Notes: a model not told the origin generated them from the sequence alone. A stretch of DNA of 64,000 bases from a virus (IMGVR_UViG_3300027659_000031:3085-67084), one strand, 5' to 3'; positions 2 through 2,416 are shown, counted from the first letter of the stretch. Made by a program: numbers and translations.

Positions 2-655
2 AGAACAGGCTACGCCCCGTATTCATTATCATATCTTGCAAAGAAGTATAATAAGAAACTAGTATTACTTATGCCAGCATCTAAAGAAGCTTCTGAACAT
101 CAACTACGTGTTATTGAAGATGGGGCTACGCCAATATTCTTAAAGACTCCTGCAATGCCAACTATAAATGCTTGGGCAAAAGACTTTGCAAAAAAAATCG
201 GAGCAAAATATATACCATTCGGTCTTAAGCACGAACAAGTTGTAGCAGGTGGAGTTAAAATATTTCACGAAGCTTTTAAAGATAAAAAGATAGATGAATT
301 GTGGAGCGTATTCTCAACAGGAGTATTATCTAGAACGCTTCAAATAGCACTTCCAGATACTAAGTTTAATGCAGTGGCAGTAGCAAGAAACGTACAACCA
401 GGTGAACTTGGTAGAGCTAAATTTTATACCTACCATAAAGAGTTTCTTAAAGACTGCGACATTGATACTCCATTTGATTGTATCAAAACCTATGATGCAA
501 AAGGTTGGGACTATATGAAACGTTATGGCAACTCTGGAGATTGGTTTTGGAATGTAGCTAGGAATATGCCAAAGCCTACAATTAAGGCAAGTGATATTGA
601 TTCTCAAAGAGAGTGGGGAGATAAAAGTGATATCCTTAAATACTTAGGAGAATAG
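2..655 (+). CDS. PLP-dependent enzyme, fold type II (Trp synthase beta/cysteine synthase-like), 5' truncated by window edge
   Basis: Frame open from position 2 (RTGYAPYSLSYLAKKYNKKLVLLMP...); G-x-A-x-x-S-L-x-x-x-A..MP segment, STGVLSR phosphate-binding loop and YDAK motif resemble phage PLP enzymes of base-hypermodification loci. Confidence 0.65.
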   Translation, partial: RTGYAPYSLSYLAKKYNKKLVLLMPASKEASEHQLRVIEDGATPIFLKTPAMPTINAWAKDFAKKIGAKYIPFGLKHEQVVAGGVKIFHEAFKDKKIDELWSVFSTGVLSRTLQIALPDTKFNAVAVARNVQPGELGRAKFYTYHKEFLKDCDIDTPFDCIKTYDAKGWDYMKRYGNSGDWFWNVARNMPKPTIKASDIDSQREWGDKSDILKYLGE

Positions 656-679
656 TTTTACAATCTACAAAATCTATTA

Positions 680-687
680 TATATTTG
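680..687 (+). promoter_or_regulatory. Bacteroidota-type -7 promoter element (TATATTTG)
   Basis: Matches TAnnTTTG just upstream of the ATG at 692; motif recurs before many genes. Confidence 0.5.
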
Positions 688-691
688 ACTT

Positions 692-997
692 ATGAATATA
701 CTTCAAGAAGCAAACAAGATTATCTACGAAAGATCTGAAGAAAAAGAGCGTCAATACGGACCTATGCAAGAAGGTATGGAAGAAGCCGCTAAGATTGCAT
801 CTTTGTTAAGCCGTAAAGAATTAACTGCTGTGGACATGTACAATGCCATGATTGCTCTTAAATTATCAAGACAGGCATATAACCATAAGGAGGATAATCT
901 TCTAGACTGCGTGGCTTATATGGCATCACTAAACGATTATCAAAATAATATTAACAATGAAAGTACAAAAGTTAAGGGAAGTAAAAACACCAAATAG
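692..997 (+). CDS. DUF6378-like all-alpha protein (possible nucleotide pyrophosphohydrolase-related)
   Basis: ILQEA..I...R...YG, LKLSR and DNLLDCVAY motifs; sits among nucleotide metabolism genes. Confidence 0.55.
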   Translation: MNILQEANKIIYERSEEKERQYGPMQEGMEEAAKIASLLSRKELTAVDMYNAMIALKLSRQAYNHKEDNLLDCVAYMASLNDYQNNINNESTKVKGSKNTK

Positions 998-1385
998 AGG
1001 AACAGAAGTATCAGCAGGAATTGACTTCTACGTACCTGAAGATTTTGAAACAAAAGTATTAGCACCAGGACAATCTGTTCTTATTCCGTCTGGTATTAAA
1101 GTGAGAGTTCCTATAGGATATGCATTGATTGCATTCAACAAATCAGGTGTATCAGTTAAGCAAGGCCTATCTGTTGGAGCTTGTGTAGTAGATGAAGATT
1201 ACGATGGAGAAGTTCATCTTCATATGATCAATACATCAGACAAAGATCAAACAATTTCTACAGGTCAAAAACTAGTTCAATTTGTATTAATCCCAGTAAG
1301 CTATACAAATGTAGAAGCTGTAGATGAGCTTCCACAAAGAGTTACACAAAGAGGTGCTGGAGGCTTTGGTTCAACAGGACTATAA
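957..1385 (+). CDS. dut: trimeric dUTPase
   Basis: Motifs AGIDF, KSG, VVDEDYDGEV, KLVQ and C-terminal RGAGGFGSTG. Confidence 0.93.
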   Translation: MKVQKLREVKTPNRGTEVSAGIDFYVPEDFETKVLAPGQSVLIPSGIKVRVPIGYALIAFNKSGVSVKQGLSVGACVVDEDYDGEVHLHMINTSDKDQTISTGQKLVQFVLIPVSYTNVEAVDELPQRVTQRGAGGFGSTGL

Positions 1386-1386
1386 T

Positions 1387-1788
1387 ATGACTAAACTAGA
1401 TACAGTATTTATAAACATAGCAAAAGAAACCTCTACTCTGTCACACTGCGCCCGCTCAAAAGTCGGCGCAGTTTTAGTTAAAGATGGCAATATAATCTCT
1501 TTTGGTTACAATGGCACTCCATCTGGAATGGATAATGCTTGTGAGAAAGATAATGTTACTCTAGCCCATGTTATTCACGCAGAGTGTAATGCAATTCTTA
1601 AAGCGGCTAAAACAGGTAACTCTGTAGATGGTTCCACTTTGTACTTAACACTAAGTCCTTGTTTAGACTGCTCTAAACTTATTCTGCAATCAGGAATTAA
1701 AAGAGTTGTATATTTGGATAGATATCGCAGTCCTGAAGGTATTGATTTTCTTAAACAATTTATTGAAGTATACCAATATGAAATTTAA
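1387..1788 (+). CDS. dCMP deaminase
   Basis: VGAVLV, GYNGTPSG, HAECNA and SPCLDC zinc motifs; start set at MTKLD (1387). Confidence 0.93.
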   Translation: MTKLDTVFINIAKETSTLSHCARSKVGAVLVKDGNIISFGYNGTPSGMDNACEKDNVTLAHVIHAECNAILKAAKTGNSVDGSTLYLTLSPCLDCSKLILQSGIKRVVYLDRYRSPEGIDFLKQFIEVYQYEI

Positions 1789-2416
1789 AACAGCAACTGA
1801 CGCATTTGAGAATCTTTATCCGCTAATAATGAATACAGGTGAAGATTATGCAGGCACAAAAGCTTTGTTTAACTGTAGTTTTTCTTTAGAGAATCCAGAA
1901 GATAAAGTTATTAAGACTCCTGAACGTAAGTTTAAACAAGACTATGCTGAGTATGAATGGAAATGGTATCTAGAAGGTAATAGAGATGCTAAAGAGATAG
2001 GACAAATAGCGAAGATATGGAATAACATGATGATCCCAGGCACTACTAATGTGAACTCTAACTATGGGTTTTTTTGGAATTATAACAATCAGCTTCGTAA
2101 AGTAGTTTCAGAACTTAGAAGAAATAAAGAATCAAGACGTGCAATTGTATTACATTACCTTATACATGAAATGGATCAGTATAAGTATGATACTCCATGT
2201 AATATTGCTTTGAATTTCTATATAAAAGATGGTGTGTTAAATCTAACAGTATTTGCAAGATCTATTGACTTAGTTTATGGATTCTCTAATGATCAGTATA
2301 CATTTGCTAAGTTAATGGAAAAGGTTGCAGAAGAGTTAGCAATGCCTCTTGGCAATATGCATTGGTTTGTAACTAATTTACATATCTATCCTAGGCATTA
2401 TGAATTGATAAAATAA
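1778..2416 (+). CDS. thymidylate synthase-family enzyme, T4 gp42 (dCMP hydroxymethylase)-like
   Basis: KIW..NSNYG, SRRA, catalytic PC, RSIDLVYGFSND and NLHIY motifs; Asp at the position of E. coli TS Asn177; start set at MKFKT. Confidence 0.75.
   Translation: MKFKTATDAFENLYPLIMNTGEDYAGTKALFNCSFSLENPEDKVIKTPERKFKQDYAEYEWKWYLEGNRDAKEIGQIAKIWNNMMIPGTTNVNSNYGFFWNYNNQLRKVVSELRRNKESRRAIVLHYLIHEMDQYKYDTPCNIALNFYIKDGVLNLTVFARSIDLVYGFSNDQYTFAKLMEKVAEELAMPLGNMHWFVTNLHIYPRHYELIK

Follow-up and report, generated by a model that had tools for sequence, protein, structure and literature searches.

A phage gene cassette pairing a putative dCMP hydroxymethylase with a predicted fold-type-II PLP enzyme: a candidate cytosine-hypermodification locus

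What would a phage make with a gp42-like enzyme of the TS family that is encoded beside a PLP-dependent enzyme? The question is raised by the first genes of the window, by which we mean the full 64,000-nt stretch of IMGVR_UViG_3300027659_000031, DNA of an uncultured large phage. The original prediction took the two genes as a coupled pair and suggested that the phage may produce modified dCMP and elaborate it with an amino-acid-derived group.

Layout and linkage of the cassette

The genes in the window form the downstream half of a conserved cassette, and p310 and p347 lie just upstream of the window (Table 1), where whole-gene coordinates are given on G000:C1. The general gene order is DUF6378, p310, p347, PLP enzyme and TS homologue; in the G000 lineage it is p310, p347, PLP, DUF6378, dUTPase, dCMP deaminase and TS homologue. 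The surroundings are a syntenic early region with DNA polymerase A, Hsp20, GroES and GroEL, and a literature search found no description of such a cassette.

Table 1. Cassette genes and their neighbours, located in the window or, upstream of it, on G000:C1
Feature	Position	Strand	Basis
p310, 310 aa, T4 beta-glucosyltransferase (b-gt) N-domain-like, with SGNH-type motifs	G000:C1:161-1093 (upstream of window)	+	Profiles, motifs
p347, 347 aa, predicted amino acid:DNA transferase (AADT)/DNA-glycosylase fold class	G000:C1:1093-2136 (upstream of window)	+	Model
Lipoprotein gene, 228 aa, variable, non-core	G000:C1:2150-2836 (upstream of window)	+	
Fold-type-II PLP-enzyme homologue, in-window residues 80-296 of 296 aa	1..655	+	Model, profiles
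DUF6378 protein, 101 aa, core cassette member	692..997	+	Pfam PF19905, E 1.8e-12
Trimeric-type dUTPase, 142 aa, accessory	957..1385	+	Pfam PF00692, E 5.8e-24
dCMP deaminase, accessory	ORF 1324..1788	+	Pfam PF00383, E 7.7e-26; phrog_174, E 1.5e-55
TS-fold enzyme, 212 aa, with T4 gp42-type active-site signature	1778..2416	+	Pfam PF00303

Linkage was counted over 30 unique loci, using a distance of at most 6 kb from the PLP gene as the criterion. The TS homologue and DUF6378 lie within this distance at every locus (30/30 each), and p310 and p347 each do so at 28/30. The predicted coupling of the TS homologue to the PLP enzyme thus holds throughout, including in lineages where the PLP proteins are only 33-51% identical; the cassette order is kept there as well, and DUF6378 is still 59-73% identical at such loci. 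In L132, L145 and L146, the PLP and TS genes are directly adjacent. The dUTPase (20/30 loci) and dCMP deaminase (24/30) are looser companions, and the lipoprotein gene occurs in 7/30. The identities that had been assigned to the DUF6378 protein, dUTPase and dCMP deaminase were borne out, but the last two proved not to belong to the core, being present in only one and three, respectively, of nine distant loci. The presence of p347 in these nine loci is by construction, because these loci were located through p347. Since p347 is absent from L065, p310 from L114, and both from all 122 kb of G003 (a 75% complete relative), neither is an obligatory partner of the PLP and TS genes.

Against NCBIfam dut, the dUTPase scored 108.3 bits (cut-off 102.55) and 104.2 bits (cut-off 103). 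The true start of the dCMP deaminase may be the ATG at 1387, right after the dUTPase stop; the homologue in L065 begins at the equivalent position. Comparisons of DUF6378 with T4 gp56 and with the chains in the PDB showed no similarity.

The TS homologue as a putative dCMP hydroxymethylase

The TS homologue matches PF00303 with 86 bits (E 2.9e-24; cut-off 24.3), and its top PDB match by phmmer is T4 dCMP hydroxymethylase (1b49; E 8.9e-16, 61.5 bits). The translation of 1778-2416 includes VFARSIDLVYGFSNDQY and IAKIWNNMMIPGTTNVNSNYGFFW; in the alignment with gp42, RSIDLVYGFSND pairs with RSNDVVFGFRND, and KIW..NSNYG pairs with KIW..NSNYG. The Asp reported 11 residues past the Arg occupies the ThyA-N177 position, in which the canonical ThyA proteins compared, RB69 td and that of the related contig L015, have Asn. 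The gp42-like character claimed for this protein on the basis of that Asp and the KIW..NSNYG segment was therefore upheld, both by the top PDB match and by a signature of D/C/R/S/D/D at ThyA 143/146/166/167/169/177 that is present in 71/71 unique relatives, catalytic cysteine (ThyA C146) included. At the ThyA-L143 position, an Asp lies three residues ahead of the Cys (YDTPC, compared with SDFMC in gp42), where the ThyA rows have Leu; Asp is also kept at 169 (RSID), a position occupied by Asn in RB69 gp48.

These residues can be read with rules set out in PMC13326640. According to that paper, Asp at the ThyA-N177 position confers cytosine specificity; an acidic residue at L143 gives water access and hence a hydroxymethyl rather than a methyl product; and Asn at 169 marks flavin-dependent 5-hydroxy-dCMP synthases, with Asp found in 5hmdCMP synthases. 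D143, C146, D169 and D177 of the TS homologue fit these rules for 5hmdCMP synthases.

The identity of a canonical ThyA was ruled out by the score, by Asp at both 143 and 177, and by the tree. The best NCBIfam ThyA equivalog score was 67.2 bits, which does not reach the cut-offs of at least 327, and on the related contig L015 a canonical ThyA, scoring 319 bits, is encoded separately at a distance of 2 kb. The phylogeny that had been suggested as a check placed the protein outside canonical ThyA, on the other side of a 100/100 branch of length 2.58, and apart from the dUMP hydroxymethylases SPO1 gp29 and ViI, which form their own clade (99/98) and have Asn at N177. The TS homologue and T4 gp42 formed no supported clade in this tree. 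The CMP hydroxymethylase MilA (5b6d, E 2e-10) was also among the PDB sequence matches. Taken together, the complete dCMP-hydroxymethylase residue signature and the low ThyA score agree with the earlier reading of a modified dCMP as the product, and the assignment of the TS homologue as a putative enzyme making 5hmdCMP from dCMP in the manner of gp42 is well supported by these comparisons.

The PLP enzyme and the two upstream proteins

The ORF at 2-655 encodes the C-terminal 217 aa of the PLP protein; the whole gene (G000:C1:2849-3739) starts 235 bases before window position 1. The protein has no Pfam match at E 0.1 or better, and is hence below the PALP PF00291 gathering score, and it matches phrog_7093 'threonine dehydratase' with E 4e-27. 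In a Foldseek search of the PDB with the AlphaFold model (pLDDT 95.9), all top rows were fold-II PLP enzymes (E 2.6e-10 to 2e-8, prob 1.00), among them threonine deaminase, D-cysteine desulfhydrase and the ACC-deaminase homologue 1j0a (E 3e-10 to 8e-10, TMq 0.62-0.68). Enzymes of beta-replacement and beta-elimination dominate these structural matches, which also include O-ureido-L-serine synthase 3x44. K58, the presumed Schiff-base lysine in a G-(S/T)-K-x-R motif, and D244, which adjoins Y243, are invariant (n=64 sequences). K58 was not visible when the original prediction was made because it lies upstream of the window; together with the model, the Foldseek matches and phrog_7093, it confirmed the predicted assignment of the 2-655 product as a homologue of fold-type-II PLP enzymes.

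In a family-profile search, the K58 column corresponds to the lysine of the cysteine synthase KDR motif, which we take to be the PLP lysine of that enzyme. K58 also aligns with K92 of ViI gp226, with an hhalign probability of 3.8% that signifies superfamily-level likeness only; PMC8989533 gives the PLP lysine of gp226 and shows that this protein works on DNA as a decarboxylase. ViI gp226 itself matches PALP weakly, with 30.7 bits, and relatives of the PLP family exceed the Pfam PALP cut-off of 35, namely Mae-JY30 (46.3 bits), P0174 (44 bits) and R6L gp1 (40.6 bits). The family can be tied to DNA modification because its members are fused to, or lie beside, N6/N4 DNA methylases in 6/10 long representatives scanned, and in R6L gp1 and Mae-JY30.

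Upstream of the window, where the original prediction suggested looking for a P-loop kinase, an amino acid:DNA transferase or a dCTPase, a protein of the AADT fold type was found in p347, but the cassette yielded neither a P-loop kinase nor a dCTPase. p347 has no match in Pfam (E 0.1 or better), PHROG or NCBIfam. Its model (pLDDT 92.5) matched an AADT-domain protein in BFVD (E 1.4e-12, TMq 0.72, rmsd 6.9), followed by weaker rows with another AADT-domain protein, Pplase1 and HMUDK-helical-domain proteins. In the PDB, VIA-align gave 21 consecutive glycosylase-type folds, PUGT among them at Z 8.5, and the best match was a DUF2419 queuine salvage enzyme, which acts on a nucleoside monophosphate, at Z 9.1; by the tool's own warning, these Z-scores fall in the range common for helical proteins. 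The models ADDT PF18724 and aGPT-Pplase3 PF18746 had no match in G000-G003, and hhalign of p347 with ViI gp247 found nothing (E 0.44). On its model, p347 is predicted to share the two-helical-bundle, glycosylase-like fold of the AADT/aGPT-Pplase superfamily.

p310 has no Pfam or NCBIfam match, and a PDB profile search found nothing. Its N-terminus aligned by hhalign with residues 1-103 of T4 b-gt (probability 81.4%, E 1.2e-5, 28% identity over 92 columns), and pairwise BLASTP between the two proteins was weak (E 0.026). The corresponding part of T4 b-gt is its domain for binding acceptor DNA. GDSHS, GNID and SVH, corresponding to SGNH blocks I, III and V, are invariant in p310 (n=15 sequences); from these motifs and a weak Atlas lead to SGNH (rank 28 only), the C-terminal half may be an SGNH/GDSL-type domain.

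With regard to kinases, no kinase family was matched by the cassette proteins in Pfam or NCBIfam. The 5-hmdU DNA kinase model PF18747 had no match in G000-G003, in a search whose control also gave no match and did not include ViI. Queries other than T4 gp1 brought up neither a dCTPase nor a dNMP kinase homologue. The only kinase candidate was a Zeta_toxin-family P-loop kinase at G001 29275-30060, about 100 kb away in this 95% complete genome.

Proposed pathway, alternatives and known systems

We consider it somewhat more probable than even that the cassette replaces or decorates the cytosine of the virion DNA by the four steps proposed here, and it is most likely a cytosine-based, kinase-free counterpart of thymidine hypermodification. 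In step 1, the TS homologue would convert dCMP and methylene-tetrahydrofolate to 5-hydroxymethyl-dCMP, as T4 gp42 does; kinases would phosphorylate this product, and the phage family-A DNA polymerase would then incorporate it. In step 2, p310 would recognise 5hmC in DNA through its b-gt-like N-terminal domain, and its SGNH-type domain may act on the hydroxymethyl group, possibly forming an ester leaving group in place of the 5-hmdU DNA kinase of thymidine pathways. Judged by its fold, p347 would link the 5-methylene carbon to an amino acid or amine in step 3. In step 4, as precedent suggests, the fold-II PLP enzyme would tailor the appended amino acid on DNA, most likely by decarboxylation as in the PALP-type ViI gp226 and M6 gp52. 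The dUTPase and dCMP deaminase would manage the dU/dC pools. That the product is amino-acid-derived is something we infer. The cassette probably yields T4-type hydroxymethylcytosine, which relatives of the enzymes that put amino acids on thymine would then decorate, so the phage DNA may hold a chemically undescribed cytosine derivative.

More tentatively, and as a possibility rather than an expectation, widespread aquatic phages may possess a kinase-free route to an amino-acid- or amine-bearing 5hmC derivative that combines ester activation by a b-gt-domain/SGNH protein, AADT-like substitution and PLP trimming on DNA, with the methylase-fused PLP relatives forming a second, purine-/N4-directed hypermodification system. 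If this is true, a chemically undescribed 5-substituted cytosine is present in phage DNA.

The alternative that survives best, which we regard as unlikely, leaves the 5hmC start unchanged and makes the PLP enzyme the one that installs the group. A PLP-aminoacrylate formed from serine or an activated serine, as in cysteine synthase, tryptophan synthase beta and O-ureidoserine synthase, would be added to the 5-hydroxymethyl oxygen (or to the exocyclic amine in the methylase-fused relatives), and p310 and p347 would be optional later tailoring enzymes. The beta-replacement and beta-elimination enzymes among the structural matches, 3x44 included, and the cysteine synthases in the profile search are in line with this, and fusion to base-flipping N6/N4 methylase domains suits an enzyme that needs a presented nucleobase nucleophile. 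The PLP and TS genes are also the most persistent pair (30/30 loci) and are kept in G003, which lacks p310 and p347, although G003 is only 75% complete. Against it, the cassette showed no gene for serine activation, and the experimentally characterised PALP-type enzymes on DNA described in PMC8989533 are decarboxylases only.

It is quite improbable that the phage makes plain 5hmC or nothing at all, with p310, p347 and the PLP enzyme serving some other early function and travelling in a conserved replication and nucleotide-metabolism block by GroEL and DNA polymerase. Such a reading would account for the syntenic early region and for G003, and the functions of the three proteins are predicted only. 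However, the five genes stay together at 33-51% identity while the dUTPase, dCMP deaminase and lipoprotein genes vary, and DNA-base modification is indicated independently by three fold or domain similarities (AADT-like, b-gt N-domain-like and methylase-fused PALP).

We find it very doubtful that the locus is an ordinary thymidine hypermodification cluster in which the TS homologue acts on dUMP, and 5hmdU is modified by the AADT-like and PLP proteins, a hallmark of thymidine pathways. The dCMP deaminase and dUTPase, whose genes immediately precede that of the TS homologue, would supply an enzyme that uses dUMP just as well, and in T-hypermodifying phages the phage dCMP deaminase feeds the dUMP hydroxymethylase, as stated in PMC8989533; but TS, dCMP deaminase and related domains co-occur on cytosine-modified contigs too, according to PMC8670742. 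Both accessory genes are missing from most of the distant loci, and the p310 domain resembles that of the 5hmC-specific T4 b-gt. The invariant Asp at N177 sets the TS homologues apart from the Asn-bearing clade of SPO1 gp29 and ViI.

A free-nucleotide or small-molecule pathway resembling that of MilA/MilB or of bacimethrin, with glycosylase-like p347 cleaving hydroxymethyl-(d)CMP and the PLP enzyme coupling the released base to an amino acid, is highly improbable: it could draw on the DUF2419 and MilA matches, but p347 matches phage AADT-type proteins much more strongly, the p310 domain resembles the one with which b-gt binds acceptor DNA, fusions to DNA methylases occur in the PLP family, and we know of no phage precedent for such a metabolite pathway.

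The preferred reading, cytosine hypermodification, can be set beside several known systems. The PLP family is shared with Erythrobacter phage vB_EliS-R6L gp1 and Microcystis phage Mae-JY30 (tblastn 26-30% identity, E 6e-29 and 2e-14), where the partner is not a TS homologue: R6L gp1 is an N6/N4 DNA methylase-PALP fusion, and Mae-JY30 has a methylase/PALP gene pair. The R6L and Mae-JY30 stretches examined yielded neither p310 nor p347 nor DUF6378. In the R6L paper (PMC5463345), gp1 is annotated only as a CcrM-like methylase.

T4 gp42 (1b49/1b5d/1b5e/6a9b) and the TS homologue have in common the TS fold, the catalytic Cys, Asp at N177 in G-F-x-N-D, Asp at L143, Asp169 and KIW...NSNYG. They are 32% identical over 175 residues, and the TS homologue is shorter (212 versus 246 aa), with the alignment ending at gp42 residue 225. 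T4 pairs gp42 with glucosyltransferases, dCTPase (gp56) and dNMP kinase, for which no homologue was detected in the cassette.

The MetaGPA 5hmC carbamoyltransferase contigs likewise combine a dCMP-type TS homologue, a dCMP deaminase and a 5-hydroxymethyl-cytosine tailoring enzyme; as described in PMC8670742, they carry a TobZ-like carbamoyltransferase and a PRA-PH (MazG-like) pyrophosphatase, neither of which is in the cassette. In phage TET/C5-methyltransferase contigs, 5hmC arises after replication through MT and TET, and a P-loop kinase is present; the authors of PMC8256090 propose that aGPT-Pplase-type enzymes could activate and further modify 5hmC in DNA. The cassette differs in that 5hmC would be made before replication by the TS homologue and that no kinase was found in it.

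The thymidine pathways of ViI, M6, PaMx11, PhiW-14 and SP10 comprise a dUMP hydroxymethylase, 5-HMUDK, AADT/aGPT-Pplase and a PLP decarboxylase, as summarised in PMC8989533. Unlike these, the cassette has a hydroxymethylase with a dCMP rather than a dUMP signature, no P-loop 5-hmdU DNA kinase was found in it, and p310 and DUF6378 are extra conserved members without a counterpart. p347 and ViI gp247 (Pfam ADDT) belong to separate sequence families, as do the PLP protein (phrog_7093) and ViI gp226 (phrog_3650). What the cassette and the thymidine pathways have in common is the clustering of a TS-homologue hydroxymethylase with an AADT-fold protein and a PALP-superfamily PLP enzyme.

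Substrate class of the thymidylate synthase homologue

The original prediction assigned the 212-aa thymidylate synthase (TS) homologue to the T4 gp42-like enzymes on the basis of TS-family motif strings, and these strings are present in the translation of the gene. In a PDB sequence search, the closest solved relative was T4 dCMP hydroxymethylase (E 8.9e-16), and the RS.D....GF.ND and KIW...NSNYG segments of the two proteins were aligned. According to the part of PMC13326640 that derives rules from tested enzymes, Asp at the ThyA N177 position points to dCMP as the substrate, an acidic residue at L143 to a non-methyl product, and Asn at D169 marks flavin-dependent 5-hydroxy-dCMP synthesis. 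The TS homologue has Asp at N177, L143 and D169, identical to T4 gp42, as do 71 of the 71 unique sequences collected for its group.

A maximum likelihood tree of 25 rows placed the TS homologue outside both canonical ThyA and the dUMP hydroxymethylases, a comparison for which the original prediction had called. The two canonical ThyA rows were split from all others (support 100/100, branch length 2.58), and the SPO1 gp29 and ViI dUMP hydroxymethylases, which have Asn at the specificity site shifted one residue later by an insertion, formed a separate clade (99/98). Support of 91/92 joined the TS homologue to other enzymes of the cassette and to the second of two TS homologues in Bacteroides phage BF503P2; T4 gp42, RB69 gp48 and the first BF503P2 TS homologue lay on long branches and their exact placement is unsure. 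A 5-hydroxy-dCMP synthase was rejected because Asp169 is retained, and a dCMP methyltransferase because position L143 is acidic. A canonical ThyA was rejected on the tree and on the NCBIfam ThyA equivalog score, which was 67 bits against cut-offs of at least 327. In line with the original prediction, the TS homologue is concluded to be a putative enzyme of the dCMP hydroxymethylase type rather than the phage's thymidylate synthase.

No second TS gene was found in the source record (G000) or in the related virus records G001, G002 and G003. ThyX (PF02511) was absent from the same four records, and its control was found in five genomes; G001, which is 95% complete, has the short TS homologue only, without ThyX. 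A related 185-kb contig carries a canonical ThyA of 347 aa (L015:14706-15749, Pfam 319 bits), which extends about 80 aa beyond the Pfam model span and lies 2 kb downstream of the gp42-like gene. Phage BF503P2 (53 kb) has two TS homologues (L002:5109-5915 and 7989-8669), both with Asp at the L143 and N177 positions; among cultured relatives of the window's enzyme, the second is the nearest (44.7% identity). In the fetched stretch of this phage, dUTPase and TS homologue were the only proteins of the cassette region recovered. The TS homologue of Enterococcus phage VPE25 (L170:3998-7911) has the same Asp/Asp signature and adjoins a dUTPase, an annotated beta-glucosyltransferase gene and a 'nucleotide sugar synthetase-like' gene, which suggests that 5hmC is glucosylated in this group of enterococcal phages.

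Conserved cassette and its upstream genes

The record spanning the window, which covers its bases 3085-67084, is linear, 67,084 bp long and 35% complete by CheckV, with a GC content of about 32% and all long ORFs on the + strand. Related IMG/VR contigs reach 162-185 kb, and 5' of the cassette region they carry a class II ribonucleotide reductase, a family-A DNA polymerase, Hsp20, GroES and GroEL; the record is therefore a piece of a large uncultured phage. Because the predicted locus begins right at the window's edge, the preceding 3,084 bases were analyzed too, and the ORF at window positions 2-655 proved to cover only the last 217 residues of the 296-aa PLP protein. A DNA search of the first 6 kb against cultured phages gave short dUTPase and deaminase matches only.

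Genes of the cassette region (C1, contig of the source record G000)
Feature	Coordinates	Strand	Description
p310	G000:C1:161-1093	+	310 aa; b-gt-like N-domain, SGNH-like motifs
p347	G000:C1:1093-2136	+	347 aa; AADT-type fold
Lipoprotein gene	G000:C1:2150-2836 (248-934 bases upstream of window)	+	predicted, 228 aa
PLP gene	G000:C1:2849-3739		296 aa; fold-type-II PLP-enzyme homologue
DUF6378	window 692-997		101 aa
TS homologue	window 1778-2416		212 aa; T4 gp42-like

Linkage was counted by searching 141 fetched loci with the window's proteins using tblastn and blastp. Ninety loci were unique by sequence, and 30 with a complete PLP gene and at least 4 kb on both sides were retained. Within 6 kb of the PLP gene, the TS homologue and DUF6378 were present in 30/30 loci, p310 and p347 each in 28/30, dCMP deaminase in 24/30 and dUTPase in 20/30; the lipoprotein gene, inserted between p347 and the PLP gene, occurred in only 7/30. 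In the nine distant loci (PLP protein less than 55% identical), which were reached through p347 alignment and are thus biased towards the presence of p347, p310, p347, DUF6378 and the TS homologue were all found in 9/9, dUTPase in one and deaminase in three. The exceptions were L065 without p347, L114 without p310 and L060 without both; the whole record of the last (G003, 122 kb, 75% complete) also has neither. In the sub-lineage without p347, a 187-aa ORF (L065:7493-8056) lies between the PLP gene and DUF6378.

Upstream of the window, where a P-loop kinase, an amino acid:DNA transferase or a dCTPase had been envisaged, a protein of AADT-type fold (p347) was found, and the cassette showed no kinase, dCTPase or dNMP kinase. 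A family search with p347 gave no match, and tblastn against cultured phages gave nothing. Its structure model (pLDDT 92.5) had no Foldseek match in the PDB at E ≤0.001. VIA-align against the PDB returned 21 consecutive HhH-glycosylase-type folds, and its rows included the queuine salvage enzyme DUF2419 (Z 9.1) and the 5-PmdU glycinyltransferase PaMx11 gp46 (Z 8.5), Z values that are common for helical proteins. The BFVD comparison was clearer. Its top two rows were a family member and an uncharacterised protein, followed by an 'Amino acid:DNA transferase domain-containing protein' (E 1.4e-12, TMq 0.72); further rows were another AADT-domain protein (E 3.3e-3), the SP10 and PhiW-14 5-hmdU DNA kinase (helical domain) proteins and two aGPT-Pplase1 proteins.

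For p310, the family search and a profile search of the PDB gave no match. The motifs GDSHS, GNID and SVH were invariant in 15 diverse members, an SGNH-like pattern, and profile residues 1-99 were aligned with residues 1-103 of T4 beta-glucosyltransferase (probability 81%, E 1.2e-5). DUF6378 matched nothing in the PDB, whether searched by sequence or by profile, showed no similarity to T4 gp56 and gave no usable Atlas lead; in the literature text available, its name is mentioned only.

Searches for HMUD2, ADDT and aGPT-Pplase3 gave no matches, with controls that were weak or lacking. The only candidate for the missing kinase, judged by its Pfam match, is a 261-aa Zeta_toxin-family P-loop kinase-like ORF (G001:C1:29275-30060, - strand, E 5e-10) of the 95%-complete record, which lies about 100 kb from the cassette and is not on the G000 fragment.

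Other regions of the window were read by eye as ORF translations. Positions 16408-41035 hold about 25 kb of glycosyltransferase, NDP-sugar dehydratase/epimerase, ThDP enzyme and aldolase-type genes, some of which could, given a predicted 5hmC phage, glycosylate DNA and not a surface structure. A 750-aa TonB-dependent-receptor-like ORF followed by a lipoprotein occupies 7926-11377, and a double-PAS protein with C-terminal membrane helices lies at 6738-7847, 3' of the lysis genes.

The PLP protein and its family

The PLP protein itself had no Pfam match and no PDB sequence match; its PHROG match was phrog_7093. Its AlphaFold model (pLDDT 95.9, pTM 0.92) matched threonine deaminases, D-cysteine desulfhydrase, the ACC-deaminase homologue 1j0a, serine racemase and O-ureidoserine synthase. 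In an alignment of 64 stand-alone members D244 was invariant, as was K58, which lies within a G-(S/T)-K-x-(K/R) motif. The fold-type-II assignment made in the original prediction was borne out by these structural matches and the invariant K58. The family profile also matched cysteine synthases (E 1.4e-8), with their KDR lysine aligned to K58.

An exhaustive search gave 711 cluster representatives at E ≤0.001, and 34 of the 150 listed exceed 450 aa. Among 10 of these 34 scanned for domains, six had an N6_N4 DNA methylase domain and seven a PALP match (two above the cut-off); an Asp/Arg-hydroxylase domain and a PARP_regulatory (methyltransferase-type) domain were found in one each. Two cultured phages show the association: gp1 of Erythrobacter phage R6L (L003:5810-8230) is a methylase-PALP fusion, and in Microcystis phage Mae-JY30 (L004:5102-6693) a PALP gene adjoins a methylase gene. 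R6L gp1 is described as a CcrM-like methylase only in the available part of its paper (PMC5463345), and no description of such fusions was found in full-text literature, supplements excluded. PLP-family members with N6/N4 DNA methylases may form a separate, undescribed DNA modification system.

Proposed pathway and known systems

Sequence comparison shows a gp42-type active site in the TS homologue, a PLP-type fold together with its lysine in the PLP protein, an AADT-type fold in p347 and a b-gt-like N-domain in p310, and the linkage of these genes is tight and conserved. In the proposed pathway, 5hmdCMP would be synthesized and incorporated into DNA. After replication, p310 would recognize 5hmC and perhaps activate it as an ester, p347 would transfer a group onto it, and the PLP enzyme would carry out a decarboxylation on the 5hmC DNA. 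The precedent is ViI gp226 and M6 gp52, proven PLP decarboxylases of thymidine hypermodification that were both modelled on 1j0a by their authors (PMC8989533). Direct homology between ViI gp226 and the PLP family is marginal only: gp226 has a PALP match below threshold and a different PHROG, and its alignment with the family is marginal, yet its K92 is aligned to K58. The main mechanistic rival to decarboxylation is that the PLP enzyme installs an amino acid by beta-replacement.

If the proposed pathway is true, this conserved and widespread cassette of dCMP hydroxymethylase, AADT-like and PLP enzymes would extend amino-acid-type chemistry to cytosine, predict a new natural DNA base, and represent a second way of activating the 5-hydroxymethyl group without a DNA kinase. 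How sensitive a phage is to restriction enzymes, CRISPR nucleases and type IV systems depends on such bases, which also bias sequencing-based detection of these abundant phages and have yielded tools for epigenetic sequencing.

To our knowledge, amino-acid-type hypermodification of phage DNA is established for thymine only, and the known cytosine derivatives carry either a sugar, on 5hmC or 5hoC, or a carbamoyl group. Carbamoylation of 5hmC has been shown and TS, PRA-PH and dCMP deaminase domains co-occur on cytosine-modified contigs (PMC8670742), and a possible fate proposed for TET-generated 5hmC is phosphorylation and transfer to aGPT-Pplase (PMC8256090). Full-text literature yielded no account of the cassette or of an AADT/PLP-type cytosine pathway, in a search outside supplements such as the contig maps of PMC8256090 and PMC8989533, which could show related clusters. 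The closest system at the enzyme level is T4 gp42, and the closest in pathway logic are the thymidine pathways of ViI, M6 and PaMx11.
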